The notes under the pieces were generated by a model. It made no database searches. It worked only from the letters and a program-made list of their open reading frames with translations, and was not told where the DNA came from. This document shows, piece after piece, positions 3,306-41,503 of a DNA stretch of 64,000 nt. Numbering within the stretch: the first letter of the stretch is position 1; every line of letters starts with the position of its first letter. Source of the stretch: an uncultured archaeon (GTDB lineage: Archaea > Asgardarchaeota > Lokiarchaeia > Sigyniarchaeales > SOKP01); the NCBI GenBank assembly GCA_964583985.1, contig CAZOYD010000003.1:1-64000 (forward strand), read 5' to 3'. The translations under genes and the position numbers were made by a program.

Positions 3306-6158
3306 TTATGTAAAACTTAGGTCTTTTCTCATTTTTAAACGAATTCTATATTTTCTTAGCTCATCCACTACAGGAACGCTAAATGCCCCTAAAAACAATG
3401 TAATCCAGTAATAAGCATGAGTTAAAGGCACAACACGGAATGCGATCCCTATTGGCGTGAAAATAATCAAAAGTTGTAATCCAAGTGATAAGCTCGTAGC
3501 CCAGAATAGGTGTTTGTTAGGAAATAGATAAAATGGTTTTATGTTTGAAGTACAAGTAAATACAAACATTAATTCGCAAATAACTAAATTCGTAAAAAGG
3601 ATTGTTTGGGCCAATGAAATAGAATAGAAATATGCATCAGTACCGTGCGTCATATAATCCAAGGTTAGTAAAGGATCTATTCCCGATTGAGCCCAAGCGG
3701 GAATAAGAACTGTCCAAAGTAATAAATAGAGTGCAATATCCGTTAATGAAGTATAAATGCCTAAGAATAAGACAGGACCTTTAATCTCTTTTATTAAAGT
3801 AAATCCTTCCCTTGGTTTTTGTTTCATGACATCTGGATCTGAAGGTGTTAAGCCAAGCACCATGGCAGGAATACCATCTGTGGCTATATTTAACCATAAA
3901 ATTTGAATTGGTTCTATAGGGAGTCCGATAAAAATATTAGTAAATAATTTCATTACAATATAGGCAAACACAATCAAGAAAAGTTCATCAAAATTCGTAC
4001 TTAACATGTAACGAAAAAACCCTTTAGTTGTTTCAAATATTCCTCTGCCTTCTTCTATAGCATTAACAATTGTAGCATAATTATCATCAATCAAAATCAT
4101 ATCAGAAGCTTCTTGTGTTACTTCAGTTCCTTTCAAGCCCATGGCTACCCCTACGTGAGCGCCCTTTACTGCTGGAGCATCATTTACTCCATCTCCAGTC
4201 ATTGAAACAATCATACCTAATTCTTTTAATCTTCGTAATATTCGTAGTTTATGTTCAGAAGTTACTCTCGCAAACACATCTACAGTTTTCACTTTTTCTC
4301 TTAGCACGTCATCACTCATTTCTTCTAATTCAACGCCAGTAATTGCTTCATTTGATTCAGTTAGTCCGATCTGATGCGCAATTGCCATTGCGGTAACTTT
4401 ATAATCTCCCGTAATCATGATGGTTCTGATACCCGCTGATCTAGCTTCACGGATTGCATCTTTTACTTCATCTCGAGCGGGATCAATAATCCCTACCAAT
4501 CCAATATATGTAAAATCATTCTCAATTTCTTCGAGGATGTAATTTGGTTCCAATTCTTTACACGCAACCCCTAATACTCGTAGAGCGCTTTTAGCGAAGT
4601 TGTCATTTTGTTCTAAAATTTTAGATTTAAAACTTTCAATAGGTTTTTGTTCTCCGTTTATTAAGATTGTTCCCGCTTTTCGCATTAAAACATCAGGTGC
4701 TCCTTTAATAAATGCATAAATTTTTCCATCAATTTTACCAATGACCGTCATCATCTTTCTGTCTGAATCAAAAGGAATTTCATCCAATTTTTCAAACGAT
4801 TCATTAATTCCTCCTTTTAAGGCTAGTACCTTCATTGATACTTCGGTTGGATCCCCTACAATGGATATTTCTCCCGTGTTTTCATTGATAATATTAATGT
4901 TAGAGTTGTTGCAATACATACATACTTCAAGGAATCTCTTCAATTCAGTATCTATGGGTACGATTGTTTGATTATCCTTAATCTTTCCTTTAATATTATA
5001 ACCGATACCTTCCACTTCAAAGACTTTATCATAAATATAGATTTTAACGACGGTCATTTCATTTTTAGTTAATGTTCCTGTCTTATCCGAGCATATAACA
5101 TTCACCCTTCCTAAAGTTTCTACCGCCGTTAAATTACGAACAAGAGCATTTCTATCAGCCATTTTTCGCATACCAATACTCATTACCACTGTAATAACCA
5201 CTACAAGTCCTTCAGGAACAGCTGATACGGCAAGACTTATTGAGATTTTAAATGCTTCCACAATTTCTTCCACTTCGCTCACTGAAAAAACGAGTCCTTC
5301 TGTAGAAATAATAAGGATAAATTCAACAACGAAAATAATAACACATAAGACTATTATAATAATCCCCAATAATTTCCCGAAACGATCGACTTCCTTTTGG
5401 AAAGGGCTTGGCTCAATTTGTTCTTCTTGTAAACTTACTGCTATTTTACCTATTTCAGTATTCATTCCTGTTCCAATTACAATGCCCTCACCATTACCCC
5501 GAGTTATGATGGTGTTCATATAGCCTAGATTGGTTCGATCTGCTAGAATTTCTTTCTTATCAACAACCTTCAATTTTTTTTCTACTGGTTTTGATTCTCC
5601 AGTTAAAATTGCTTCATCAACGTAAAGCGAGAATTTTTTAAAAATTCGTACATCAGCGGGAAATTTATCACCTTCTTCAAATAAAATAATGTCACCAGGA
5701 ACTACATCTTCGACTGCAATTTGTAAGACTTTATTACTTCTTCGAACTCGAGCAAAATGAGGAGCTAACTTATTGAGACTCTCCATGGATTTTTCAGCTT
5801 GATATTCTTGATAAAATCCTAAGATTGCATTGATAATTAGAATTGCTGCAATTACGATAGCATCCGTATATTCAGAAGACCATGGTTCTGCTCCTGGTCT
5901 AGAAGCCTCCCAAATCCCAATAATTAATGAAACCGCAATCGCAAAAAACAATAAATATATTAGAAAATCCTTGAATTGAGCAACAAAAATTTGCCAAGCG
6001 GTTTTACTTTTTTCTTTAATTAATTCATTTCTACCATATCTCTCTAATCTCTGTTTAACCTCACTCTCTGAAAGTCCTATAGTTAGATTTGTTGCTAATA
6101 ATTCAGCAACTTCATCAACCGGTTTCGAATGGGCACTAATTTGTTTAAGATCTATCAT
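3306..6158 (-). CDS. P-type IIA (SERCA-like) cation, probably Ca2+, ATPase, copy 2
   Basis: TGES, VPEGL, DKTGT, KGAP, TGD, GDGVND; M6 QILWLNIATDG. Confidence 0.93.
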   Translation of the reverse strand: MIDLKQISAHSKPVDEVAELLATNLTIGLSESEVKQRLERYGRNELIKEKSKTAWQIFVAQFKDFLIYLLFFAIAVSLIIGIWEASRPGAEPWSSEYTDAIVIAAILIINAILGFYQEYQAEKSMESLNKLAPHFARVRRSNKVLQIAVEDVVPGDIILFEEGDKFPADVRIFKKFSLYVDEAILTGESKPVEKKLKVVDKKEILADRTNLGYMNTIITRGNGEGIVIGTGMNTEIGKIAVSLQEEQIEPSPFQKEVDRFGKLLGIIIIVLCVIIFVVEFILIISTEGLVFSVSEVEEIVEAFKISISLAVSAVPEGLVVVITVVMSIGMRKMADRNALVRNLTAVETLGRVNVICSDKTGTLTKNEMTVVKIYIYDKVFEVEGIGYNIKGKIKDNQTIVPIDTELKRFLEVCMYCNNSNINIINENTGEISIVGDPTEVSMKVLALKGGINESFEKLDEIPFDSDRKMMTVIGKIDGKIYAFIKGAPDVLMRKAGTILINGEQKPIESFKSKILEQNDNFAKSALRVLGVACKELEPNYILEEIENDFTYIGLVGIIDPARDEVKDAIREARSAGIRTIMITGDYKVTAMAIAHQIGLTESNEAITGVELEEMSDDVLREKVKTVDVFARVTSEHKLRILRRLKELGMIVSMTGDGVNDAPAVKGAHVGVAMGLKGTEVTQEASDMILIDDNYATIVNAIEEGRGIFETTKGFFRYMLSTNFDELFLIVFAYIVMKLFTNIFIGLPIEPIQILWLNIATDGIPAMVLGLTPSDPDVMKQKPREGFTLIKEIKGPVLFLGIYTSLTDIALYLLLWTVLIPAWAQSGIDPLLTLDYMTHGTDAYFYSISLAQTILFTNLVICELMFVFTCTSNIKPFYLFPNKHLFWATSLSLGLQLLIIFTPIGIAFRVVPLTHAYYWITLFLGAFSVPVVDELRKYRIRLKMRKDLSFT

Positions 6159-6362: not shown

Positions 6363-9248
6363 TTATGAATTCCTATGAAAATCTGTTAATCTTTCTTGCC
6401 AATATGAGTCTTTTGCTCTTTTCCTTCTTACTAAATATTTTCTTGTTTCTTCCGCTGGAACGATAAATACAGAGCCAAGAAATATAGCTGCCCAATATTG
6501 CCAATGAACCAGTGGGACAACGTGAAAAGCAACACCTAAAGGGGTAAAAATGATAACTACATGTAAGATGAATGATATACCCGTGGCCCAAATTAGATGT
6601 TTATTTCTAAACTCCCATAAAGGTCTATATTCTGATGTGCAAGAAAATACAAAGAAGAGTTCAAAAAATACCACATTTGTGAAGACTATTCCTTGAGCAA
6701 CCGCAATTTGATATTGTTCTGCAGTATAAGATATTCCAGACCATAAATTCGTAACTCCCGAATTTAAATAAGGATCAAACCCTTCGCTTGCCCAGACTGG
6801 GATCAAGGGATTCCAGACAAGAACATATAAAAGTACGTCGGTGATTGCAGCAAAAATTGCAGCAAAAAGAATCGCTTTCTTAATATCACTAATCATATTA
6901 AATCCTTTTCGCGGTTTAAATTTCATTACTTCTGGATCTGTAGGAGTTAATCCTAATACCATTGCTGGAATGCCATCGGTGGCAATGTTAAGCCATAAAA
7001 TTTGAATTGCTTCAAGAGGTTGGGCTAGATAAATGCCTATCGTTATTTTCATTAGAATCCATGCCGTTAATATTAAAAAGATCTCATCAAAATTGCAGCT
7101 AAGCATATATCTAAAGAAACTTTTAGTGGTTTCAAAAATTCCGCGACCCTCTTCAATTGCATTTACAATCGTGGCATAATTATCATCGATGAGGATCATG
7201 TCTGCTGCTTCTTGGGTAACTTCCGTGCCTTTCAATCCCATTGCGACCCCAACATTTGCTCCTTTTACTGCGGGAGCGTCATTTACGCCATCTCCTGTCA
7301 TTGCTATTATGTCTTGTTCAGATTTTAGGCTTTTAAGAATACGCAATTTATGTTCTGATGTTACTCGCGCAAATACATCAACAGTTGCAACTTTTTCACT
7401 CAATTCAGTATCACTCATCTCTTCCAGTTCTTCCCCTGTTATCGCATTGTCATTATCAGTTAATCCTATCTGCTTTGCAATGGCGATCGCTGTCACCTTA
7501 TGATCTCCCGTAATCATGATCGTTCTGATGCCGGCCATTCTTGCTTCTTGTACCGCATTTTTTACTTCATCTCTTGCTGGGTCAATTATTCCAACCAATC
7601 CTAAAAATATGTAATCTGTTTCTGCTTCGTCCTGAGAATAATCGTTGTTCAAAGGTTTATATGCGACACCTAGTACTCTCAGTGCTTCTTTTGCATATAG
7701 GATATTCTGATTTTGAATTTGTTTGGCTACTTCCTTAATTGGTACTTCTTCTCCATTCATCAGACCTTTTGCTGCATTTTTTAACAAAACATCGGGTGCT
7801 CCTTTTATATAAGAAAAGTAATTTCCATTAATTTTCATTATGACAGACATCATTTTTCTATCCGAATTGAAAGGTATTTCATCAATTTTTTCAGCCTTGG
7901 TTTGAATGTTCATTTTCATTGCTAAAACTTTCATTGAAATCTCGGTAGGATCACCCACTACATCAGTAGCGCCGCTTTCTGGATCTTTGACATTCACATT
8001 TGAATTATTGCAGAGTAAACATACTTCTAAAAATCTCTGGAGGTTTGGGTTCATTTTTACCATATTTTCTTCATGATCAAGGATTTTTCCATTAACATTA
8101 TAACCAACCCCATCCACAAGATATTCAGTTCCATCCAAAAAAACCCTAATGATTGTCATTTCATTTTTAGTTAAAGTTCCTGTTTTATCGGAACAAATTA
8201 CGTTGACTCGTCCAAGCGTTTCAACAGCTGTAAGTGTTTTTACCAGAGCATTTTTATCAGCCATTTTTCGCATGCCAATGCTCATGACTACGGTAATAAC
8301 TACTACTAAACCTTCAGGAACCGCTGAAACCGCCAAACTTATAGCTACAGTTAATGCATTTATTATTTCATGAATTTCTTCAGGCTGAAATCCAGCACCC
8401 TCGAATAACACAATTATAATTAATTCTATTCCAAAAACTAAACCACAAACGATTAAAATGATTTTTCCAAGAAGTTTACCAAAACGATCTACTTCAATTT
8501 GAAAAGGACTTGGTTCTGGTTCCTCTTCTTGAATTTTCTCAGCAATCTTTCCGATTTCTGTCTTCATCCCTGTAGCTATTGCTATTGCTTCACCATTTCC
8601 TCTGGTGATAACAGTGTTACTATATGCAGTATTAATCCTATCAGCTAAAATCGTTTTTTCATTAACAATAACATTCTTTTTATGAACAGGAGCAGATTCT
8701 CCTGTGAGAATTGCCTCATCAATATATAATGAGTAAGCTTTTGTCAATCGTGCATCAGCTGGTAATTTATCTCCTTCATCAAGTAGTAAAATATCACCCG
8801 GAACAACATATTGTACTTCAATCTCTTTTACTATCCCTCCCCTTCTGACTTTTGCATTATGAGGTGCAAGTTTTTTCAGACTTTCTAATGCTTTTTCTGC
8901 TTTGTACTCTTGATAAAACCCAAGAATTGCATTTACAACTAAAATAATCCCAATTACTAATGCATCCAGAAATTCTGAAGGTTCTCCTCCCGAAGCTAAT
9001 TCATAAAAACCAACTAGGACAGAAACTGCAATAGCAAAAAGTAATAGATATACAAGAAAATCTTTAAATTGGTTTAAAAAGATTTGCCAAGGGGAAATTC
9101 TCTTTGTTTGTTCTAATTCATTCAATCCATAACTTTCAAGTCTCTTTTGAACTTCACTTTCGGTTAACCCATTATCTATTGAAGTATCAAGCGCTTTTAA
9201 AACATCATCAATTTCTAAAGCATGAGCTTTAATTTCTTTTAATGCCAT
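6363..9248 (-). CDS. P-type IIA (SERCA-like) cation, probably Ca2+, ATPase, copy 1
   Basis: Same motif set; close paralogue of the adjacent gene. Confidence 0.93.
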   Translation of the reverse strand: MALKEIKAHALEIDDVLKALDTSIDNGLTESEVQKRLESYGLNELEQTKRISPWQIFLNQFKDFLVYLLLFAIAVSVLVGFYELASGGEPSEFLDALVIGIILVVNAILGFYQEYKAEKALESLKKLAPHNAKVRRGGIVKEIEVQYVVPGDILLLDEGDKLPADARLTKAYSLYIDEAILTGESAPVHKKNVIVNEKTILADRINTAYSNTVITRGNGEAIAIATGMKTEIGKIAEKIQEEEPEPSPFQIEVDRFGKLLGKIILIVCGLVFGIELIIIVLFEGAGFQPEEIHEIINALTVAISLAVSAVPEGLVVVITVVMSIGMRKMADKNALVKTLTAVETLGRVNVICSDKTGTLTKNEMTIIRVFLDGTEYLVDGVGYNVNGKILDHEENMVKMNPNLQRFLEVCLLCNNSNVNVKDPESGATDVVGDPTEISMKVLAMKMNIQTKAEKIDEIPFNSDRKMMSVIMKINGNYFSYIKGAPDVLLKNAAKGLMNGEEVPIKEVAKQIQNQNILYAKEALRVLGVAYKPLNNDYSQDEAETDYIFLGLVGIIDPARDEVKNAVQEARMAGIRTIMITGDHKVTAIAIAKQIGLTDNDNAITGEELEEMSDTELSEKVATVDVFARVTSEHKLRILKSLKSEQDIIAMTGDGVNDAPAVKGANVGVAMGLKGTEVTQEAADMILIDDNYATIVNAIEEGRGIFETTKSFFRYMLSCNFDEIFLILTAWILMKITIGIYLAQPLEAIQILWLNIATDGIPAMVLGLTPTDPEVMKFKPRKGFNMISDIKKAILFAAIFAAITDVLLYVLVWNPLIPVWASEGFDPYLNSGVTNLWSGISYTAEQYQIAVAQGIVFTNVVFFELFFVFSCTSEYRPLWEFRNKHLIWATGISFILHVVIIFTPLGVAFHVVPLVHWQYWAAIFLGSVFIVPAEETRKYLVRRKRAKDSYWQERLTDFHRNS

Positions 9249-14912: not shown

Positions 14913-16451
14913 TTAAAAATTATAAGAGATTGATTCGAGGTCATCGATTATTTTTTGTCTGAGAGAGTTATGTGAGACACTTGGTAATAGCTCTTCCAAT
15001 ATATCTCTCAATTCGATAATTTTTTCTTTTAATAATTCTGGTTTACTCCATAATGACTTTCGAAGGGGATGGATGTGGATCATTGCTTTATTATAATTTT
15101 CTATGGATTCTCTATAAAAAAGACAAGCACTATCATAATTCTCCAATCTGGTATGATATATAGTTCCAATTTTGTTAAAGCACATGCCTGCTCCAGCATA
15201 ATCTCCAATTTTTTCAAATAAAATTGCAGCATCTTGGATTTTACTTAAAGCTAGTTTCAAGACATCATTTTTTCCATGTTTTAATAAGATATATCCAAGA
15301 ATATAACTTGCTACAGCTTTATAAAATGAATTATCCTGTTCTTCCGCTATTTTCATCAGATCGGTAGCAAATTCTTCTGCTAAGACTAAATGATTGCTCG
15401 AAATGCATAATTTAGTTAGATTTCGTAATAAATCTTGAATTCGATCAACGTCTTCCTCTTTCGTATAAATTTTTATTCCTTGACGATATTTTTCTACCCC
15501 TGTAAATGGATCTCTTTGTTGAAATGCTGTATTTCCTTCATATATTAGTTGTTCAGCTTTTTCTATATCATCGACAATTTTAGTTTTACCATAACTTGAT
15601 TCATCCCAAAAAAGGTTATTGAGATCAAATGAGACTTCATTTTTCATTGGAATATCTACTAAAGCTTCAGCGCCAAGTTGTGTATCAATTTCATTGGTCA
15701 TTTCATCTTGTACTAATTTTTTATTATCCTTTTCGCCATATGCTGATTGTAAAGGCTTTCCCACCGATACTAAAGCTGATAATTCAGATAAAACATTGGC
15801 AAAAAAATATTTATTAAGACCCTCTACAATATAATCGACTTTGTGATAATTGGTCTCATATTCGGGAGAATTAGGATCCAAGTTAACGTCAGTTAATCTA
15901 TATATTTCAAACCCTGTACTATATTTCGTTAAAAGATTCTCTCCAATTTTTTCTTCTTTTTTTTTACCTAATAAACTATGATCAAAAACTAGACCAATTG
16001 AATCATTAAATTTATTTTGAAATCCTAATTGATTTATAAGATCAACGTAAGAAAAGAATAATGAAAGGCCTGGATGTGAATGAAACCACCCAACAACGAA
16101 ATTACCCTTATTTTCTTCATACAATTGTTGTTCAATTTCATCTATGAAGATATAATGCCTATGATCCAATTGTACATCCGTATCATGACCGAATGTCAAA
16201 GCGAAAGCATTCTCTACATGAACAAAATCATCATCCACATATCCAACGAGGATCCCATAAATTTCTTTCCAATTAGCTGATGGTATCGCATGATTCGCAT
16301 ATCGACTTGCATACAGAATGATCGTTTTATATGCTTCTGCATTAATTATCACGGGTTTACCAGGATTTGCCTCTTTATTTTGTTTGGGTTGTTCATTTTT
16401 CTCAATATTTTTATGGACGTCTTTTCTGGACTTTTGATTTTCTTCAGACAT
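14913..16451 (-). CDS. JAMM/MPN+ metalloprotease (Rpn11/CSN5-like) fused to TPR/SNAP-like helical repeats
   Basis: EIYGILVG...VVGWFHSHPGLSLFFSYVD is an intact E...HxH-x7-S-x2-D motif; C-terminal helical repeats. Confidence 0.87.
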   Translation of the reverse strand: MSEENQKSRKDVHKNIEKNEQPKQNKEANPGKPVIINAEAYKTIILYASRYANHAIPSANWKEIYGILVGYVDDDFVHVENAFALTFGHDTDVQLDHRHYIFIDEIEQQLYEENKGNFVVGWFHSHPGLSLFFSYVDLINQLGFQNKFNDSIGLVFDHSLLGKKKEEKIGENLLTKYSTGFEIYRLTDVNLDPNSPEYETNYHKVDYIVEGLNKYFFANVLSELSALVSVGKPLQSAYGEKDNKKLVQDEMTNEIDTQLGAEALVDIPMKNEVSFDLNNLFWDESSYGKTKIVDDIEKAEQLIYEGNTAFQQRDPFTGVEKYRQGIKIYTKEEDVDRIQDLLRNLTKLCISSNHLVLAEEFATDLMKIAEEQDNSFYKAVASYILGYILLKHGKNDVLKLALSKIQDAAILFEKIGDYAGAGMCFNKIGTIYHTRLENYDSACLFYRESIENYNKAMIHIHPLRKSLWSKPELLKEKIIELRDILEELLPSVSHNSLRQKIIDDLESISYNF

Positions 16452-27818: not shown

Positions 27819-30524
27819 TTATACCAAATCTAATTCTTCTAACAAATTGTTTAACTTTACTCTGTTATCCTCTTGTTCGGGGTTTAAAATCAATCTCTTC
27901 TGATAAAAAATAACATTTCCATATTTCAATTCTAAATCATTAAAAAGTTTAATCCAAGAATTAAAATTCTGCATCAAAGATTTTACATCTTCATCATCTT
28001 CGAAGAATTTTATATCCTTATGATCCAAGGATGAACTTATGGCTTTATATTTTGAAATTGAATAACCTTGTGCACGCAGGAATTCAGAATTTGTTCGTTT
28101 AATAAATGCATCCACCCCATGCCTCCATCTAATATAATTTTCATTGATTTTTGTAATAATCGTTTGAATGGCTCTAATTTCTTGAGGAATTATGGGTTCA
28201 TCTTGTTTAGTTAAAATTGCTTTTATTTGAGTGAATTCATTTTGAAAATGCTGGCAGTATTTTTTTATCATTTTTTCAAATTGAAGATAAACGGTATTAT
28301 AATTTTGGGCAAATATTATATCAACACTTGAAAAGATTAGTGATTCTTCATCAAATTTACCTTTAATTCTCCCCGCATTTAATAGATCTTTTGCAATTGA
28401 GGTTAATATCTCAATTTCCTTATCTGAAAGTTCTTTATCGGGAAAAAAATCCCCGAAGGAAAACAAGGAACTTTCTTCCATTAGATTTTCCAAACCTAAT
28501 TGTGTGAAATATTGTAGTTGTCCGTCCTCCTCATAAAATATCCCCTTGATCTTATTCGATTCATGCAGAGATTGTAATAAATCTTTCACTATGCTTGATG
28601 TAATATCTAAGTTGCCAAGAGTTATCATTTCTGATGATTTAGATTTCTCTATCAGCATTGATTTTATTTCTTCTTTAGCATCTTCAATTTTTGTTTCATT
28701 AATTATTAGAAAATCTCCTTTTTTAAAATATTTCAAGCCAAGTTTTTCAATAAATTTTAAAAAGTCACCCATTGACATTCCAGTTTTTTCCATGTAGTCA
28801 CTTAACTTAATCCTATCAAGTTTCTTAATTTCTTCTGCGATTAGCCTTAAATTTTCATCAATACTTGTTAATATATGAGTTCTTTCAATGTTCAACTCTT
28901 TAGCTAAATTATTTATGTTTTCTTCTTTTCCTACAGGATCACTGATGAGAACAGAAATTCGATCTTTTATGAATTTTGAATAGTAAAACACTTCTCTGTT
29001 TTTATCAAATATTCCACTTCTTACATCAATGTATTGTTTAAATATTTCATGCAATAAGGGCGTTACAATATTTGTTTTGTCAGAAATTTTAGGAATGGAG
29101 AAATAGCCTAATATTTTTGAATTTTCAATCTCTTTTTTAATTTTTAAGAGCCCTAAATTGGTTAACCAGTATGTACCTCTATGAAAATTAGTTAAATAGT
29201 CCTTAGGGATATTTACTATGAGTCTCTTAAAATCTTCTTCGTCTAATCGATCTTTATAAGCCTTTAAATCAATAGTACTATTCTTCGCTGCTTCAGAATT
29301 AATTCTGGTACTAATTTTTTTCAATGAATAGAATGCGGAATCACTTTTACCCCTTAAAAATTGAGTTTTTGATGATATTGCAATTTCAGTGATTAATTTT
29401 TGAATTAGAGAAGGTGGTAAGTACTCATATTTTTTAGTATTTAACATTCCTTTATTTTGTAAAGTACTAGTAAATTCAGATTTTAGATATGAATAGGGAT
29501 AAAAATAACCTAATTCAGAATAATAACCATCAATATGCTTTAATTTGAGAAGATTTTTCACAAATAATTTCAATTCTCTCTCATCTTTTATGATATAGGT
29601 AAAAATTTGGAGTAAATCTTCATTTGATATTTTTCTTTTATTGAAAATTGAAATTAACTTACTTCTATCAAGTTCATAGAAATTGATTAATTTGTTATCT
29701 TTCTCTTTTATATAAAAAAAGATTTCATTATCACTATTCTTTGACTTTGTTATCGCTCTTATTTCATCTTTAAGTTCATTATCGTTCAATTTAAGAAAAG
29801 TCCTTTTTGACATTAAAAAAATATCATCAAGGATATTGAGAGTTTGCTGCAAAGTACGTTCTTCAAATTCTTTATTTTCTAAACTCGGGAAAACACGTTT
29901 ACAGAGTACTATTAATCCAGAAATAAACGTAGGATTATCAAAATGTTCTATAAATAAATCTTTTGCAAGATCTCTAATGTCATACGAATTGTTGTAGGTA
30001 AAATCTTTACATTTAATCAGGAGATTAACTAAAGAAACGAAATTTTCGAAATTTTTCTCGATACCTAATGCTTTTATGATGATACTTTTTTTATCGCATA
30101 TTTCAACATTGTTTTTCTTTAATATTTCGTTTAAAAAATAATGAGCATTATCTCTTATGTCCTTATCATCATCTAATAAACAGTTAACCAATGGTTCGAG
30201 AAATTCTTTGATAATGCTTGAATTCTCCAGAGACGCAAAGCCCAATATGGTAATCGTGTTTAATTTTAATTTAGTACTCTCATCATTCAGATAACGAAAC
30301 ACTTTCTTAATTAAATTTTCACTAAGAAGTGAGGATTCTTTTTCTATTAAGATACTAAGAATATATGTAATTGGAACAACATAATTCCCCTCTTCTAAAA
30401 GAAGTTCTAGCTGTCCGATTAAAGAAGAAACTTTTTCTAGCTTATTTTTAGCCATATTTTTATTGAGTTTTTCTACAATTGGGTAAAGAGGTTCAAATTT
30501 TTCAAAATCATCAAGATTAAACAT
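27819..30524 (-). CDS. Large protein: N-terminal HEAT/ARM repeats, tandem winged-helix (PCI/UFL1-like) units, C-terminal helical region
   Basis: LVNCLLDDDKDIRDNA HEAT pattern; repeated I.G.(F/Y)....(F/Y) motifs. Confidence 0.6.
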   Translation of the reverse strand: MFNLDDFEKFEPLYPIVEKLNKNMAKNKLEKVSSLIGQLELLLEEGNYVVPITYILSILIEKESSLLSENLIKKVFRYLNDESTKLKLNTITILGFASLENSSIIKEFLEPLVNCLLDDDKDIRDNAHYFLNEILKKNNVEICDKKSIIIKALGIEKNFENFVSLVNLLIKCKDFTYNNSYDIRDLAKDLFIEHFDNPTFISGLIVLCKRVFPSLENKEFEERTLQQTLNILDDIFLMSKRTFLKLNDNELKDEIRAITKSKNSDNEIFFYIKEKDNKLINFYELDRSKLISIFNKRKISNEDLLQIFTYIIKDERELKLFVKNLLKLKHIDGYYSELGYFYPYSYLKSEFTSTLQNKGMLNTKKYEYLPPSLIQKLITEIAISSKTQFLRGKSDSAFYSLKKISTRINSEAAKNSTIDLKAYKDRLDEEDFKRLIVNIPKDYLTNFHRGTYWLTNLGLLKIKKEIENSKILGYFSIPKISDKTNIVTPLLHEIFKQYIDVRSGIFDKNREVFYYSKFIKDRISVLISDPVGKEENINNLAKELNIERTHILTSIDENLRLIAEEIKKLDRIKLSDYMEKTGMSMGDFLKFIEKLGLKYFKKGDFLIINETKIEDAKEEIKSMLIEKSKSSEMITLGNLDITSSIVKDLLQSLHESNKIKGIFYEEDGQLQYFTQLGLENLMEESSLFSFGDFFPDKELSDKEIEILTSIAKDLLNAGRIKGKFDEESLIFSSVDIIFAQNYNTVYLQFEKMIKKYCQHFQNEFTQIKAILTKQDEPIIPQEIRAIQTIITKINENYIRWRHGVDAFIKRTNSEFLRAQGYSISKYKAISSSLDHKDIKFFEDDEDVKSLMQNFNSWIKLFNDLELKYGNVIFYQKRLILNPEQEDNRVKLNNLLEELDLV

Positions 30525-33065: not shown

Positions 33066-33482
33066 GTGTGTAAATTAAATATTATGGTTTTAGAAAATGA
33101 TCTTGAGAAAATGAAATCTAAGGTCAAGTTTGGCATTAAATTTTGGTTAGAATTTGAAGATGGAGAAAATAAAAACATATTAGGTTCAGGATGGGCAAAA
33201 TTATTAAAAAGAATAGAAGAACTTGAATATATGGGGGTCAATTCTTTAACTAAAGCTGCAGAAGATTGCGGTTATTCTTATAAATATGCGTGGAACATTT
33301 TAAAAAGGATCCAAAAAAGAACCGGTGTTTCTCCCGTTACAACAGGCAAAGGTGGAGCAGGTGGTGGTGGTTGGGTAAAGTTGAATGAATGGGGTCATTT
33401 TTTACTAGGTAGATATAATACCCTTCTACTCGAATTAAAAAATATAGAAAAAAAACTTGAACATACATTGAGATTAGATTGA
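33066..33482 (+). CDS. ModE N-terminal-type winged-helix regulator
   Basis: SLTKAAEDCGYSYKYAW...GKGGAGGGG..LNEWG; no TOBE domain. Confidence 0.85.
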   Translation: MCKLNIMVLENDLEKMKSKVKFGIKFWLEFEDGENKNILGSGWAKLLKRIEELEYMGVNSLTKAAEDCGYSYKYAWNILKRIQKRTGVSPVTTGKGGAGGGGWVKLNEWGHFLLGRYNTLLLELKNIEKKLEHTLRLD

Positions 33483-33583: not shown

Positions 33584-34006
33584 TTGGGGGAGAAGAATTC
33601 GTATATTGAAAAACTTACCGTTCAAGATTACATGATTTATGATCCTTTAACAGTTACTCCTGATGCTAAAATTAGTTCAACAGAATTATTAATGTTAAAA
33701 AAAAACATTGGTGGATTACCAGTCATCAAAGATAGTAAGTCTAAACAATTAGTTGGAATAGTTACTCAACGAGATATTAGACTTGCTCGATTTGCATTGA
33801 ATTTAGAATCCCCAACGACAAATGTACGTGATTTAATGACTAAGGATCCAATATTTGTTAGTAAAACCGATTCCCTAAAAAAAACTCTTCAATTAATGTT
33901 TGAAAACAATGTTGAACGCTTGCCAGTAATTAATCAAGATAATGTATTAATTGGGCTTGTTATTCAACAAGATATTTTAAAAGCTATATATAATCAATTG
34001 AAATAA
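33584..34006 (+). CDS. CBS-pair protein
   Basis: Two CBS repeats (GGLPV...LVGIVTQRD; ERLPV...LIGLV..QD). Confidence 0.9.
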   Translation: MGEKNSYIEKLTVQDYMIYDPLTVTPDAKISSTELLMLKKNIGGLPVIKDSKSKQLVGIVTQRDIRLARFALNLESPTTNVRDLMTKDPIFVSKTDSLKKTLQLMFENNVERLPVINQDNVLIGLVIQQDILKAIYNQLK

Positions 34007-34140: not shown

Positions 34141-35670
34141 ATGGTTATTCCTTTACCCGGCACGCCTGTAATAGTAGATATAGGATCTGCTTATTGTAAA
34201 GTAGGTTTTGCAGGTGAACCTAGCCCACGATTTGTTTTTCCAACAATTACTGGTACAGAAAAATATAAAGCAGTGATGGTTGATGTCAACGCAAGAAATA
34301 TTTATGTTGGAAATGATGCGTCTCGAATGAGAGGTGTTTTAAAAGTAAAACATCCTATAGATAGGGGTGCTATTTTGGATTGGAATGATTATTATGAAAT
34401 TTTAAATTACATTTTTTATACTCTTCTAAGAATTGATAATCTCTCCAACTATCCCATTCTTTATACTGAAGCACCTTTTGTTCAAAGGGATACTAAAGAA
34501 TATATTGCACGTGTTTTATATGAAACACATCGTGTTAAAAGCTTAATAATGGTTCCAACACCTATTCTGTCAATATTTAGCGTGGGCTTAACAACAGGGC
34601 TCGTGATCGAGTCTGGGGACGGATTAACATGGATATGTCCTGTTATCAACGGGCAAATCGTAGATCAGAGTGTTCAGAAATTAGCTTTAGCAGGGATGGA
34701 TGTAAATCAATATTTAAAAAATCTACTAATGAGGGAAGGAATCAATATAGAATCTTCTGCCGTTGAAGAAATTATTAGAGAAATTAAAGAAAAAAATTGT
34801 TATTTCATTTTAGATCCTAATAATAAACCTGATATGAAAGATAATTTCAGTTTTTCCATGCCTGATGGCTCTACTATAAACATACCTAATTTTATCTTTT
34901 ATGAAGCTCCAGAAGTCATGTTCCAGCCCCAATTGTTGGGATATCAAATAATGAGCATCTCTCAAGCTATTATTGAGAGTTTACAAGGAATTGATAAACA
35001 TTATTGGTCAGATTTACTGTCTCACATTGTTATATCGGGAGGAAATTTCAGCTATTCAGGATTTGAAGAGCGATTAAAATTAGAATTGAGATCATTATTA
35101 CCTCAATTAGGAAAGATTCCTAAACCAAAGATTGAAGAAGATTCTAAATCTGAAACAAAACTAAAATTAAAGAGTCTTAAAAGTGAAAAAAAATTACAAG
35201 ATACCTGTCCTCACTGTGGTATCTTGGTAGACTTATCTGATGATAAAGAATACTGTCCTTCGTGTGGCGGACGAATAACTCTTCCTGAATTATCTATAGA
35301 ATCAGGGGGAACCCCATCAAAAGCTAATATAATTGATGGAAAAGTATTTTGTCCTAATTGTAATAAATTAATTGATGATTCAACTTCAATATTTTGCCCA
35401 TATTGCGGTGCGAGTGTTCAATCATTTGATCCACCTGAATTTATGGCAAAAAAGATCAATCAGACAGTTCTTGCTAAGGAATTTTCTGGATTTTACGATT
35501 CTGTTGAAGATGTATTAAGGTATTTTGTTCCTGATAATCTTCAATATGCAATATTCAATGGTGCTGCTATTTTAGGAAGCTTACCTTCTTTTCTCCGATT
35601 ATTTGTATCCCATCAGCAGTTTACTGAAAATAATGATCTTTTATATAAAGATATAAGCGAAATTTTCTAA
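34141..35670 (+). CDS. Asgard actin-family protein with double zinc-ribbon insertion
   Basis: DIGSAYCKVGFAGEPSPRFVFPT, HPIDRG, TEAP, ESGDG, EIKEK, MPDG, PEVMFQP, ISGG, GAAILGSL; four CxxC in the insert. Confidence 0.93.
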   Translation: MVIPLPGTPVIVDIGSAYCKVGFAGEPSPRFVFPTITGTEKYKAVMVDVNARNIYVGNDASRMRGVLKVKHPIDRGAILDWNDYYEILNYIFYTLLRIDNLSNYPILYTEAPFVQRDTKEYIARVLYETHRVKSLIMVPTPILSIFSVGLTTGLVIESGDGLTWICPVINGQIVDQSVQKLALAGMDVNQYLKNLLMREGINIESSAVEEIIREIKEKNCYFILDPNNKPDMKDNFSFSMPDGSTINIPNFIFYEAPEVMFQPQLLGYQIMSISQAIIESLQGIDKHYWSDLLSHIVISGGNFSYSGFEERLKLELRSLLPQLGKIPKPKIEEDSKSETKLKLKSLKSEKKLQDTCPHCGILVDLSDDKEYCPSCGGRITLPELSIESGGTPSKANIIDGKVFCPNCNKLIDDSTSIFCPYCGASVQSFDPPEFMAKKINQTVLAKEFSGFYDSVEDVLRYFVPDNLQYAIFNGAAILGSLPSFLRLFVSHQQFTENNDLLYKDISEIF

Positions 35671-35843: not shown

Positions 35844-36947
35844 TTGAGATATAAAAATAGGTATTTAACGTTTAGCTTAATGTTCTTAGCAATATTTATC
35901 CTTATTATTCCTCTTGCTTCAGCGAAACAAAGAGATTCTTATTTAGTCGATTTTATTTATTCAGAACAAGTAGGAAATCAAGGTTTTGGCGATTCTTATC
36001 AAGAAACTGCTCAAGCTTTAGAGATTTTGAAAAATTTTGAAGCTTTCACGATAGAAGGAATATTTGGTGTTGAGAACAAAGTCGATGTCCCTACTTTAAC
36101 AAATTATCTCGTTGATAAACTAACAGATATGTTTGAAGATGAAACAGTGAATTTGTATGATCTCTATGGCATTTTAAAATCACTACATTATCTCGATCCC
36201 GTGATAGATTCCGATTTAAGCAAGGAGATTTATAATTATGTCAACACTTCTGGACTTCCTAGCGGTGGTTTTACTCCAACGAACATTTCAAAGGCAGTAA
36301 ATGTGGTCTCTACATTCTATGCCTTTCAGATCTATGATTTACTTGGAATTGATATGCCAAATAAAACGATCCATGCAAACTGGCTTCTCTCGTGCAATAA
36401 TGCTGATGGTGGATATGGAGGTAATTCTTCTTTATCCTCTACTTTACTAACAACTTACCAAGTTGTATACTTAATTAATGAATTAACAGGAAGTGTTGAT
36501 AACTTAGTTAATAAATCTGCCACGCTGGAATATTTGACATCTTTTTATCAGGGTGATGCTAATGATTTTAATAACTATGGTGGTTATCTCCCTGATCTCA
36601 CTGCTCTAGTGGTGTTATTAAGTAGCTCTTTTATATGTCTAAGCTCAATTGGATTAATCGATTCAACAGAATTACATCAAGATCCGACCATAAATTTTGT
36701 ATTATCTCGTCAAAATTTTCGGGATGGAGGATTTAGTGATAAAGTTATAGACTATTATCAAGAACTCTCATCAATAACGGCCTCCTATTATGCCTTCAAG
36801 ATTTTAGATGTGTTTAAATCAACTGATTTATTAAATGAAGAGATATTTATGGTGGAATTCAATTATATCTTTTTGATTATCATGTTATCTGCGATTGGTA
36901 TAATTGTATTTGTTGCATATTTGATGTGGCGAAAAAGAAGAATTTAG
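35844..36947 (+). CDS. Membrane-anchored prenyltransferase/squalene-oxidase-repeat (alpha/alpha toroid) protein
   Basis: Signal peptide, repeats SGGF/DGGYG/YGGY/QNFRDGGFS, C-terminal TM followed by RKRR. Confidence 0.78.
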   Translation: MRYKNRYLTFSLMFLAIFILIIPLASAKQRDSYLVDFIYSEQVGNQGFGDSYQETAQALEILKNFEAFTIEGIFGVENKVDVPTLTNYLVDKLTDMFEDETVNLYDLYGILKSLHYLDPVIDSDLSKEIYNYVNTSGLPSGGFTPTNISKAVNVVSTFYAFQIYDLLGIDMPNKTIHANWLLSCNNADGGYGGNSSLSSTLLTTYQVVYLINELTGSVDNLVNKSATLEYLTSFYQGDANDFNNYGGYLPDLTALVVLLSSSFICLSSIGLIDSTELHQDPTINFVLSRQNFRDGGFSDKVIDYYQELSSITASYYAFKILDVFKSTDLLNEEIFMVEFNYIFLIIMLSAIGIIVFVAYLMWRKRRI

Positions 36948-38600: not shown

Positions 38601-39791
38601 ATGAGTTCGAATATAGGTCCTGAAGCATCTGCAGCTTATGATAGATATTTAGATGCTAAAACAATCGAAGAAAAAATCAGGTGCCTTGAAGAATTTCTTT
38701 CTATCGTTCCAAAACACAAAGCAACAGAAAGAATTGTAGCTTTAAACAAATCCCGACTTTCTAAATTGAAAAGAGAACAAGAAGAAAAAAAAGAAAAGGA
38801 AAAAGCCGGGAAAAAAATAAGTCCATTTTCTATAAAAAGGGAAGGAATCCAAATAATCTTGATTAGTGATTATCACGTACCTGGAGTTGGTAAAACTTCA
38901 ATATTAAACTTATTAACTGGAGCTGCAAAAAAAAAAATTGGTAAATTCACGTCTTTACCCGAAATTGGGATATATAAAGAGCAAAAAATCAAATTTCAGA
39001 TAGTAGATATGCCTTCAATTATGGTTGGGGCTTCTGATGGAGTGGCAAATGGCAAGGAAATTCTATCTCAGATTAGATCTTGCGATCTAATAGTAATTTG
39101 CATTGATTTATCCAGAAATATAGATGATCAAATTTGCATGATAGAAAAGGAGTTACACAAATCAAATATTAGATTAAACCTTCAATCTCCTCCAATTTCA
39201 ATTGAAAAAACGGGATCTAATAAAATTCAAGTCTTCTATCTCACTGAAGAAGCAAAAAGCGTTGAAGAATTATCAGATTTTTCAGAAAAAATAAAAGAGA
39301 TTGTACATGCTAGTGGCATTAGGAATGGGATTGTAAAATTATATGGGAAAGTAACAATAGATCAAATTGTTGATGCTGTTAACCCCTCAGTTGTATATAA
39401 AAAGGCACTCATCTTGGGAACAAAGGGAGATCTCCCTTATACTCAAGAAGCTTTCGATGATTTAAAAGAACGATATTCAAGTAAATATCCCTTAATACTC
39501 GCTAGTAGCTCAAAAAAAAAAGAATTTACTCCCGAATTTGGGAAAATTATCTTAGATTTTTTAAAAAAAATTAAGGTTTTTACAAGTCATAAGGGAGTAA
39601 TAGCAGAAAAACCTTTGATTTTGGATTCGAATGTGACCATAAGAAATGTAGCAATAAAAATCCATCGCAGTTTTTATGAGAAATTTGATTATGCCGTTGT
39701 AATTAGAGAAGGAGCAAGACAATATCGAAAGAAGGTAGGATTAGATTTTAAAGTTGAGGATAATGATATCATAGAATTATTTACAAAATGA
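38601..39791 (+). CDS. DRG/OBG-family GTPase-like protein with TGS domain (degenerate G motifs)
   Basis: PKHKATE N-terminus, VGKT, QIVDMP, C-terminal TGS (VAIKIH...KVGLD...DNDIIE). Confidence 0.87.
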   Translation: MSSNIGPEASAAYDRYLDAKTIEEKIRCLEEFLSIVPKHKATERIVALNKSRLSKLKREQEEKKEKEKAGKKISPFSIKREGIQIILISDYHVPGVGKTSILNLLTGAAKKKIGKFTSLPEIGIYKEQKIKFQIVDMPSIMVGASDGVANGKEILSQIRSCDLIVICIDLSRNIDDQICMIEKELHKSNIRLNLQSPPISIEKTGSNKIQVFYLTEEAKSVEELSDFSEKIKEIVHASGIRNGIVKLYGKVTIDQIVDAVNPSVVYKKALILGTKGDLPYTQEAFDDLKERYSSKYPLILASSSKKKEFTPEFGKIILDFLKKIKVFTSHKGVIAEKPLILDSNVTIRNVAIKIHRSFYEKFDYAVVIREGARQYRKKVGLDFKVEDNDIIELFTK

Positions 39792-40981: not shown

Positions 40982-41503
40982 GTGTATATTACGCGCGTAC
41001 CTTCATTCCTTTTAAAAAGTTTTATGAAAATAGAATTAGATGGAGAGTATATAGAATTTTCCATAAAATTTGCATCCGTAAATCGTAATTTAGAAGAAGA
41101 ATTAATGGGGTTAAATATAACAATAGATGGAACTGTCATTTTTGATATAGACCTCATCCCTAATAATTTTCATATAAGATTGAACGATATCTTTTATAAT
41201 AATCAAGATCTTTTTAAAATTTATAATAAAAAAATATCTACATTAGATAAATTCGTTTTAATTATCCCTAATAGTTCAAATATTATAGCAGGTAAACATA
41301 AAATATCTTTTTATAGTAAAATATCGAATTTGACAGTGACAACCAGACTAATAATAAATGAAAAACCCGAATATTCTCCAATTCAAGAAAAATTTCAAAA
41401 TGAATTACATCATCATAGATATTGTCCATTATGTAAAAATATGGTTACTGAAGAAAATCAGAAGTTTTGTGAATTTTGCGGGTATGAACTCATTAAAAGT
41501 TGA
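40982..41503 (+). CDS. Hypothetical protein with C-terminal zinc ribbon
   Basis: CPLC...FCEFCG; start uncertain. Confidence 0.65.
   Translation: MYITRVPSFLLKSFMKIELDGEYIEFSIKFASVNRNLEEELMGLNITIDGTVIFDIDLIPNNFHIRLNDIFYNNQDLFKIYNKKISTLDKFVLIIPNSSNIIAGKHKISFYSKISNLTVTTRLIINEKPEYSPIQEKFQNELHHHRYCPLCKNMVTEENQKFCEFCGYELIKS

Follow-up and report, generated by a model that had tools for sequence, protein, structure and literature searches.

In eukaryotes, Arp2, Arp3 and Arp1 are actin-fold proteins that have been diversified by loop insertions, as has the archaeal protein described here, which we will call the zinc-ribbon ARP (actin-related protein). Arp2 and Arp3 probably carry short inserts, of 10-15 amino acids, in the same loop, before the 'IIAPPERKY' strand. 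Their barbed face is preserved as the template for a daughter filament, and they depend on five further subunits. The nuclear Arp4 to Arp8 are nucleotide-locked structural subunits of complexes. We know of no eukaryotic ARP with a zinc-ribbon insert, and of none that acts as a terminator of barbed ends.

In Asgard archaea, the actin regulators studied so far are profilins and gelsolins, and 'ARPs' appear as names in trees. Co-immunoprecipitation of Lokiactin from Ca. Lokiarchaeum ossiferum is reported to have enriched a profilin, five gelsolins and an ARF GTPase (PMC13716822). Three unnamed 'ARPs' of this organism were reported by Rodrigues-Oliveira et al. (Nature 2023, PMC9834061). One of them, UYP44711.1, is placed in that paper among Asgard and eukaryotic ARPs, with transcripts well below those of Lokiactin. 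It is the orthologue of the zinc-ribbon ARP. Both primers published for it match exactly inside an open reading frame of the L. ossiferum locus (L092:5804..7303), whose product shares with ours the site and anatomy of the insert, the flanking genes and a monophyletic group with 100% support. In the searched passages of the paper, 'insertion' is used for insertion-sequence elements alone and not for UYP44711.1. A full-text literature search found no description of a zinc-ribbon insert in any Asgard actin relative, and an ESCRT survey in which Asgard archaea, actin and zinc ribbons all come up does not deal with it.

The window, a stretch of 64,000 nucleotides from an uncultured member of the Lokiarchaeia, contains the gene at 34141..35670 on the forward strand, as are all features below. 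It starts with ATG and stays open throughout, encoding 509 amino acids followed by a stop; the list of open reading frames, the translation, Pfam matches to Actin and DZR, and orthologues agree on it. The clear actin fold seen in the preliminary description is borne out. Pfam Actin (PF00022) matches residues 9-323 with an E-value of 3.8e-71 and 240 bits (cut-off 27), and the match to the family falls in two stretches on either side of the insert. When PDB chains are searched with HMMER, residues 6-326 and 459-499 align with actin residues of about 8-327 and 329-366. The best match in sequence is 9wc4 ('HC1 actin', a solved relative of Lokiactin; E 1.7e-69), and actin and Arp1 score 236 and 229 bits, respectively. 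The AlphaFold model is of moderate quality (pLDDT 69.9), and in Foldseek it matches actins with TM scores of 0.74-0.82, normalised by target length. The N-terminal part of the core (residues 1-322, 34141..35106) comprises subdomains 1, 2, 4 and most of 3 and is aligned with actin 8-322. The C-terminal part (residues 458-509, 35512..35667) corresponds to actin residues of about 329-375, its residues 459-499 aligning with 354-394 of 9wc4. The protein is a complete actin fold.

Between the two parts lies an insert of about 132 amino acids (residues 327-458), which replaces actin residues of about 323-328 in the HMMER alignment, in a loop on the underside, that is the barbed-end side, of subdomain 3. 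The preliminary description had placed a Lys-rich linker and four CxxC pairs in this loop, and both are there. The insert begins with a stem (LGKIPKP) and the Lys-rich first linker (together residues 323-352, 35107..35196). The stem motif LGxIPxP is kept order-wide; the linker varies between relatives in length and charge, being acidic and Pro-rich in some, and has a pLDDT below 50 at residues 333-351. Zinc ribbon 1 follows (residues 353-378, 35197..35274), with the pairs C356/C359 (CPHC) and C372/C375 (CPSC) and matches to Pfam DZR and Zn_ribbon_15; it was found in all members of the order that were examined. After a poorly conserved inter-ribbon linker (residues 379-400, 35275..35340; pLDDT below 50 at 380-394) comes zinc ribbon 2 (residues 401-425, 35341..35415), with C404/C407 (CPNC) and C419/C422 (CPYC), for which Pfam Zn_ribbon_3 and Zn_Ribbon_1 score above their cut-offs. 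This second ribbon is missing from the L. ossiferum type and from family f4, and so is dispensable in some lineages. The insert ends in a second linker (residues 426-457, 35416..35511) with the stem motif xEF, where E447 is nearly invariant and F448 invariant; an equivalent E-F/Y occurs order-wide, and a strand is predicted at residues 448-451. Alignments and AlphaFold confidence agree that the linkers are disordered and variable and the ribbons conserved. The insert is a flexible arm built on a conserved stem of two strands, with a linker of variable make-up, a C4 ribbon shared by all members, in most lineages a second ribbon, and another variable linker.

That we are dealing with a double zinc ribbon is indicated by two C4 ribbons with four CxxC pairs and by the match of Pfam DZR (PF12773) to residues 356-423 above its cut-off (E 3.2e-8, 34.1 bits, cut-off 27.3); the binding of zinc is predicted. 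All eight cysteines are invariant among 65 relatives of 60-87% identity. That the gene is an assembly chimera, a pseudogene or an actin with a chance stretch resembling zinc ribbons is scarcely credible, as its frame is intact, its cysteines do not vary, and the same architecture recurs in more than 120 independent assemblies. An insert unique to this assembly would have spoken for a chimera, as the preliminary description pointed out; since more than 120 genomes have kept it, that possibility is ruled out.

With the DZR profile (PF12773) and the single ribbons PF13240 and PF13248 as a yardstick, the zinc-ribbon ARP shares the four CxxC pairs and the two ribbons. DZR-type ribbons, however, are normally terminal in small or membrane proteins, whereas in the ARP the pair is set within an actin fold and held by long, flexible tethers. 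Similar generic zinc ribbons stand at the end of many other proteins encoded in this genome; none of these is especially close, and the idea of a special origin for the ribbons of the ARP was dropped. What might such an arm be for? One suggestion is that the protein has nothing to do with filaments and is, on the model of the nuclear Arp4 to Arp8, a nucleotide-locked structural subunit of another complex. The ribbons and the basic linker of the ARP would then make contact with nucleic acid, with a membrane or with a protein that has no relation to Lokiactin. The generic character of the ribbons, of the type that ends many proteins of the genome, and the weak similarity they show to those of RPA, RpoP and YacG are in line with this suggestion. 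The charge of the linker does not favour it, since it is not conserved, and some relatives have acidic, Pro-rich linkers instead.

The nucleotide pocket bears on the same question. In actin, Q137, H161 and D154 position and activate the attacking water. Two alignments, one by HMMER and one by MAFFT with eukaryotic actin and the genome's own Lokiactins, agree in placing T140, W164 and E157 of the zinc-ribbon ARP at these positions and R75 at that of H73, just as the preliminary description had read them by manual alignment. In 78 sequences of the family, the position of R75 (codon 34363..34365) is always R, that of T140 (34558..34560) is T in 51, S in 25 and A in two but never Q, and that of E157 (34609..34611) is E in 77. 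At the position of W164 (34630..34632) there is W in 68, the rest having T, F, Y, N or S, with H in L. ossiferum. W164, E157 and R75 never vary among the 65 relatives of 60-87% identity, in which position 140 holds T (50) or S (15). Tryptophan at the place of H161 is confined to the family of the window's genome; elsewhere in the order it gives way to T, F, Y, N or S, and the L. ossiferum orthologue retains H161. In its residues, then, the protein departs from hydrolysis-competent filament actin: Q137 is replaced by T, S or A, H161 mostly by W, and D154 by E. The genome's two other ARPs likewise lack Q137 and H161, so that this trait is not peculiar to the zinc-ribbon ARP.

The rest of the pocket is intact. 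D13, K20, G159, G161, K216, E217, G300 and G301, which correspond to actin D11, K18, G156, G158, K213, E214, G301 and G302 in the phosphate-1, phosphate-2 and adenosine motifs, are invariant in the 78 sequences. Because every residue of the phosphate and adenine pockets is invariant, we infer that the zinc-ribbon ARP would bind ATP or ADP. With Q137 lost throughout, and D154 and H161 each replaced in 77 of the 78, it is plausible that ATP hydrolysis would be poor or absent. The loss of catalytic residues with retention of those that bind the nucleotide is also what several eukaryotic ARPs display, and it fits a subunit of some other complex.

More than 120 species-level genomes, some of them closed, encode a full-length relative, and 123 genome loci carry the gene. 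All belong to families f1-f4 of one order of Lokiarchaeia; elsewhere in the phylum, matches are at the level of Lokiactin (about 1e-70). The clade is thus restricted to this order, that of Ca. L. ossiferum, where it is kept order-wide and is present in a cultured strain. UYP44711.1 from that strain is 39% identical to the window protein over the whole length and has its insert in the same loop. It shares the replacements of D154 by E and H73 by R and the gene order (winged-helix gene, ARP, toroid protein, FolD), and at Q137 it has S. Unlike the window protein, it keeps H161 and has one zinc ribbon instead of two, and within its insert lie an acidic tail and a conserved RKEKKLIKKT motif, both missing from the window protein.

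In a phylogenetic tree whose comparison set came from the 150 best library representatives (actins, Arp1 and unnamed actin-like proteins, few of them bearing names), the family is a clade of 100% support. Its stem measures 0.7 changes per site, and it lies apart from Lokiactin, from eukaryotic actin and from Arp1. The Arp1-type representatives (P0194, P0215 and P0264, the last of which is named centractin) form a clade of their own inside the actin group, away from the family. Some sources label relatives of the zinc-ribbon ARP 'centractin'.

Nor is it a Lokiactin, from which the preliminary description had rightly set it apart. The genome holds two separate Lokiactin genes (C1:25549-26661 and C116:713-1822), which score 440 and 432 bits with the Actin model, versus 226 bits for the zinc-ribbon ARP. 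The latter stands in a separate clade, is about 35% identical, has replaced catalytic residues and carries the 132-amino-acid insert. Lokiactin resembles it in fold, core length, nucleotide-binding motifs and the lengths of D-loop and plug, but keeps Q137, H161, D154 and H73 and lacks the insert.

Divergence from Lokiactin is unevenly spread. Against a mean identity of 0.35 with the genome's own Lokiactin, the actin segments 265-291, 319-337 and 356-375 fall to 0.10-0.26, whereas segments 17-34, 62-70, 206-214 and 238-246 reach 0.54-0.69. Resemblance to Lokiactin is weakest in the C-terminus, in the hydrophobic plug and on the underside of subdomain 3, and the parts which remain Lokiactin-like are upper (pointed-end) elements, namely residues 62-70 and 238-246 and, less so, the D-loop, which varies between families of the order; what we take to be the two faces comes from residue lists in the literature rather than from a computed structure, and the asymmetry between them is modest. 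In the Holmes 1990 and Oda 2009 models of F-actin, residues 322-325 and 283-294 reportedly contact subdomain 4 of the next subunit on the barbed-end side. The barbed-side surface of subdomain 3 has diverged in the zinc-ribbon ARP, whereas Arp2 and Arp3 keep their barbed face. The part of the barbed-face cleft that belongs to subdomain 1 is well conserved within the family (F146, G149, T151, L478, L481, S483 and F484); to call the barbed face 'lost' would be too simple.

We suggest, with a probability of roughly 40%, that the zinc-ribbon ARP is an ATP-binding, poorly hydrolysing, non-canonical ARP that docks on Lokiactin and acts as a nucleotide-locked terminal subunit with a zinc-ribbon arm. 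Since plug, subdomain-3 underside and C-terminus are its least Lokiactin-like parts, it would build no canonical two-stranded actin filament alone. It would attach by its upper face to the barbed face of Lokiactin, whether that of a monomer or that at the end of a filament, and there it would remain as a terminal subunit locked in its nucleotide state. The arm would then block or redirect growth and tether the Lokiactin end to some partner, with the ribbons as a putative adaptor or end-cap. Such a design, apparently nucleotide-locked, diverged on the barbed side and bearing a tethered zinc-ribbon arm, is unusual. If the ARP caps, nucleates or anchors Lokiactin filaments, actin paralogues would have become filament regulators before eukaryotes arose, and by a recruitment route other than that of Arp2/3.

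Alternatively, the zinc-ribbon ARP may be a polymerising actin paralogue, forming filaments of its own or co-polymers with Lokiactin, from which the arms would project outward as docking sites or a scaffold. Its D-loop, hydrophobic plug and C-terminus are of actin-like length, and the residues of the cleft between subdomains 1 and 3 are conserved within the family. Actin K326 and K328, at the point of insertion, are exposed on the outer surface of F-actin, where a filament might accommodate an insert. Crenactin, ParM and MamK lack the Q137/H161 pair of actin and polymerise all the same. But conservation within the family, like similarity to Lokiactin, is lowest in the plug and on the underside of subdomain 3, transcripts of the L. 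ossiferum ARPs are several-fold below those of Lokiactin (PMC9834061), and the filaments reported from cells so far are all of the Lokiactin type. We regard polymerisation as unlikely.

The suggestion of a subunit in a complex without filaments fares a little better, although we would still bet against it. It agrees with the text of the Lokiactin co-immunoprecipitation report, which names no ARP (PMC13716822), and it is at odds with the Lokiactin-like character of the pointed-face elements. If the protein does serve a non-cytoskeletal complex, it would be a parallel to the nuclear ARPs.

Downstream of the ARP gene, at 35844..36947, lies a gene whose product is anchored in the membrane and has, outside the cell, an alpha/alpha toroid resembling the beta subunits of protein prenyltransferases; its model has a pLDDT of 89, and the best fold matches are the beta subunits of RabGGTase and GGTase-III. 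It is found downstream on the same strand in 78 of 80 close loci, being adjacent in 75, and it also adjoins the ARP gene in L. ossiferum and in further families of this order. This order-wide neighbour has, as far as we can tell, been noticed here for the first time. The two proteins may or may not be functionally linked. An active protein prenyltransferase was considered and dropped, as the invariant residues of the toroid do not include the conserved Asp/Cys/His zinc triad. For the same reason, and because the charge pattern puts the toroid outside the cell, prenylation of the ARP by its neighbour was not adopted. An operon was also rejected: there are T-runs after the ARP stop and AT-rich, TATA-like stretches before each gene, and on these signals the two genes are likely transcribed separately. 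Both genes are absent from a few genomes; such co-loss is not evidence of a link, since one deletion can remove adjacent genes.

A more specific version of our preferred reading, docking on Lokiactin as a terminal subunit, would make the zinc-ribbon ARP an archaeal barbed-end terminator whose arm tethers Lokiactin ends to the membrane together with the surface-exposed toroid protein. We consider this improbable; if true, the cytoskeleton would here be joined to the cell surface in a primitive way, for use in the protrusions and crawling of Asgard cells. For a role in a complex unrelated to filaments, the conserved winged-helix and membrane-protein neighbours can be cited in favour. On the other hand, no candidate complex adjoins the gene, and the extracellular toroid could reach the ARP only via a tail of about six amino acids.

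Upstream, the gene at 33066..33482 encodes a small ModE-N-like winged-helix protein (NCBIfam ModE_repress domain, E 7e-11, below cut-off). It precedes the ARP gene in 70 of the 80 close loci and also in loci L091, L092, L093, L094, L097 and L098. Between the two, at 33584..34006, the window has a gene for a CBS-pair protein (Pfam CBS, E 5e-29), which is a neighbour in the window's family only, being present at 56 of the 80 close loci and in L089.

The zinc-ribbon actin-related protein (ARP) is encoded by an intact ORF of 509 codons with an ATG start at window positions 34141..35670 (+), on a contig of 30% G+C in a genome of 3.8 Mb and 138 contigs. The Pfam Actin model (PF00022, E 3.8e-71) matches in two stretches separated by a double zinc ribbon (PF12773, E 3.2e-8), where single-ribbon families also score above their Pfam cut-offs. 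When PDB chains were compared using HMMER, the top chain was 'HC1 actin' 9wc4 (E 1.7e-69), followed by eukaryotic actins at ~236 bits and Arp1 at 229 bits. Since each match is split into ARP residues 6-326 and 459-499, residues 327-458 are an insert into subdomain 3 at actin 323-328. It consists of a stem (LGKIPKP), a Lys-rich linker, ribbon 1 (CPHC...CPSC), a linker, ribbon 2 (CPNC...CPYC) and a last linker, after which comes the strand LRYFVP. The actin fold and the four CxxC pairs of a subdomain-3 insert, as proposed in the preliminary description, are therefore real. So are its four substitutions: HMMER and a MAFFT alignment that took in a eukaryotic actin and the genome's own Lokiactins agree that actin Q137, H161, D154 and H73 correspond to ARP T140, W164, E157 and R75. 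An AlphaFold2 model built on the family alignment has a moderate pLDDT of 69.9, with a confident core, ribbons at 66-73 and linkers below 50, and describes predicted ribbons on flexible tethers. Foldseek matches it to actins only.

The insert is not unique to this assembly, as it would be in a chimera. A word-indexed search found >120 clusters of ~508 aa with 59-87% identity to ARP; each has Actin and zinc-ribbon Pfam domains, and every one comes from an Asgard metagenome bin. The alignment of 65 close relatives shows no change in any of the eight cysteines or in W164, E157 and R75; position 140 holds T or S, and the linker columns vary. HMMER, run exhaustively against 1.8 billion representatives, returned distant members of the same architecture (40-60% identity, 486-576 aa), one of them with a single ribbon. 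Zinc-ribbon ARPs are thus a real, conserved family. Scanning species-representative genomes yielded 123 loci. In 399 genomes of the phylum, matches that span the insert are confined to the four families of the order to which the window belongs; the remaining orders of its class, and the other classes, give only matches of ~1e-70, the level of Lokiactin. Some ARP-bearing records bear the names of several candidate phyla, and in one case of an actinobacterial family, in their titles; because of 60-87% ARP identity and identical gene order, we read these as loose or wrong labels. One such record, DATKTW010000100.1 ('Candidatus Nanopelagicaceae bacterium'), has an ARP copy of 72% identity and is probably an Asgard contig that was mis-binned or mislabelled. 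Copies of 61-74% identity occur in several records from a single submission batch whose titles name Odin-, Thor-, Hermod- or Hodarchaeota.

In a maximum-likelihood tree of 59 sequences, in which a gap filter dropped the insert columns, the family forms one clade (SH-aLRT 100, stem 0.7) outside a group (support 81) of Lokiactins, eukaryotic actins and Arp1-type proteins. The suggestion that ARP is distinct from Lokiactin is upheld. The placement relative to eukaryotic Arps, also called for, covers the Arp1 type.

Actin D11, G13, K18, G156, G158, E214, G301 and G302 are invariant in 78 family sequences and K213 is kept in 77 of them; the nucleotide pocket is under selection. The Q137 site is T in 51, S in 25, A in two and Q in none of the 78; H73 is replaced by R in all and D154 by E in 77. 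The H161 site is W in the family of the window's genome, T, F, Y, N or S elsewhere, and H in Ca. Lokiarchaeum ossiferum; the S14 and D157 sites are likewise variable in distant families. From these residues one would naturally infer that efficient hydrolysis has been lost and nucleotide binding kept. The same genome encodes two Lokiactins (contigs C1 and C116), an actin-like fragment at the end of contig C110, and two non-Lokiactin homologues of 373 and about 390 aa (C18:53780-54856(-) and C12:25500-26594(-)) that have no insert. The latter two carry D at the Q137 site and R or L at the H161 site, hence the ARPs of this genome share the loss of the hydrolysis pair.

Twenty-two non-redundant family members were compared with the genome's own Lokiactin (mean identity 0.35). 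The least Lokiactin-like segments (0.06-0.26) are actin 224-237, 247-255, 265-291 (the hydrophobic plug, with the helix and loop beneath subdomain 3), 319-337 (flanking the insert) and 356-375 (C-terminal). The most similar (0.54-0.69) are 17-34, 62-70, 206-214, 238-246 and 292-300, and the D-loop is intermediate (0.37-0.43). In F-actin models, residues 283-294 and 322-325 rest on subdomain 4 of the next barbed-ward subunit, and the plug makes a cross-strand contact. Together these suggest that the barbed-side surface of subdomain 3 and the cross-strand contact have drifted, while upper-face elements remain Lokiactin-like. The subdomain-1 half of the cleft on the barbed face shows good conservation within the family, however, and the effect sizes are modest. 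A polymerising paralogue with ribbons displayed on the filament surface is unlikely. The best-supported reading, to which we give a probability of about 0.4, is that ARP would bind ATP, hydrolyse it poorly and form no canonical filaments. Its upper face would dock on the barbed face of Lokiactin, and the zinc-ribbon arm so presented would block or redirect growth and recruit a partner.

Both published primers for UYP44711.1, designed by Rodrigues-Oliveira et al. for an actin homologue (PMC9834061), match exactly inside the orthologous ORF L092:5804..7303, on a closed 6.04-Mb chromosome of the window's order; this genome is therefore that of Ca. L. ossiferum. In the tree of that paper UYP44711.1 is one of three unnamed 'ARPs', and its transcripts lie well below Lokiactin's; the passages searched use 'insertion' only for insertion-sequence elements and not for this protein. 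A full-text literature search found no published description of a zinc-ribbon insert in an Asgard actin relative. The gene is undescribed in its key feature and known in type as an actin-related protein. The report of a Lokiactin co-immunoprecipitation in L. ossiferum names a profilin, gelsolins and an ARF GTPase, and mentions no ARP in its text (PMC13716822). This argues slightly against a stable, abundant ARP-Lokiactin complex, but is still compatible with a rare end-binder. The rival reading of a nucleotide-locked subunit outside the cytoskeleton, with ribbons that bind some other target, is rather unlikely, if slightly less so than a polymerising paralogue. The proposed docking mechanism can be tested directly in an Asgard archaeon that is in culture.

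Across the order, the stem motifs (LGxIPxP outward, xE-F/Y on return) and ribbon 1 are universal. Ribbon 2 occurs in most lineages and is missing from the L. ossiferum type and family f4. Insert length ranges from ~95 to 190 aa, the differences lying in linkers, which are basic in the window's ARP and acidic and Pro-rich in other relatives. The L. ossiferum family has a conserved RKEKKL(L/I)KKT followed by an acidic stretch after the ribbons (L092, L093, L094, L099, L100, L103 and proteins P0127 and P0128); the insert of the window's ARP has neither. The LKKT core resembles the WH2/thymosin actin-monomer-binding motif, a likeness that may be chance in a Lys-rich stretch. About 20 proteins of the window's genome, roughly 110-500 aa and many of 150-250 aa, carry a ribbon like ribbon 2, mostly C-terminal (e.g. 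C8:31513-32151, C26:7793-8296, C26:8435-8935 and window 40982..41503). In this organism it looks like a widely reused terminal module.

Directly downstream of ARP, at 35844..36947 (+), lies a gene for a 367-aa membrane-anchored toroid protein. Of 80 close loci, 78 have it downstream on the ARP strand, and in 75 of these it adjoins ARP (median gap 153 bp). The two genes are also neighbours in L. ossiferum, in further families of the order and in metagenomic relatives whose ARP identity goes down to 33% (toroid orthologues at L092:4556..5704(-), L093:4187..5338(-) and L094:7339..8562(+)). Strong orthologues of the toroid protein occur only in the window's order, and one subclade keeps ARP without the toroid gene. 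The confident model (pLDDT 89) predicts an alpha/alpha toroid, placed outside the cell by the positive-inside rule as applied to an N-terminal signal/anchor helix, a C-terminal membrane helix and a six-residue basic tail. Its nearest folds are beta subunits of Rab geranylgeranyl- and farnesyl-transferases (TM 0.6-0.7, 17-18% identity). The predicted fold resembles those of eukaryotic RabGGTase and GGTase-III beta, but the toroid protein has no evident conserved Asp/Cys/His zinc triad. Upstream of ARP, a small gene for a ModE-N-like winged-helix protein is conserved, as is FolD downstream. T-runs follow the ARP stop, which suggests separate transcripts for ARP and the downstream gene; the conserved linkage of ARP and the toroid gene is a lead to a possible functional tie.

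A DRG/Obg-type GTPase with TGS (MMR_HSR1, MMR_HSR1_Xtn, TGS; 38601..39791(+)) shares synteny with the ARP cluster in 69 of the 80 close loci. A 901-aa protein (27819..30524(-)), which weakly matches condensin Cnd1-like HEAT/ARM repeats, is conserved in 53 of 80 related loci. Elsewhere in the window, two tandem P-type cation ATPases (3306..6158(-) and 6363..9248(-)) carry Cation_ATPase_N and Cation_ATPase_C domains in a SERCA/PMCA-like architecture. A JAB/MPN deubiquitinase-like domain lies at the N-terminus of a 512-aa protein (14913..16451(-)) that is possibly part of the Asgard ubiquitin system.
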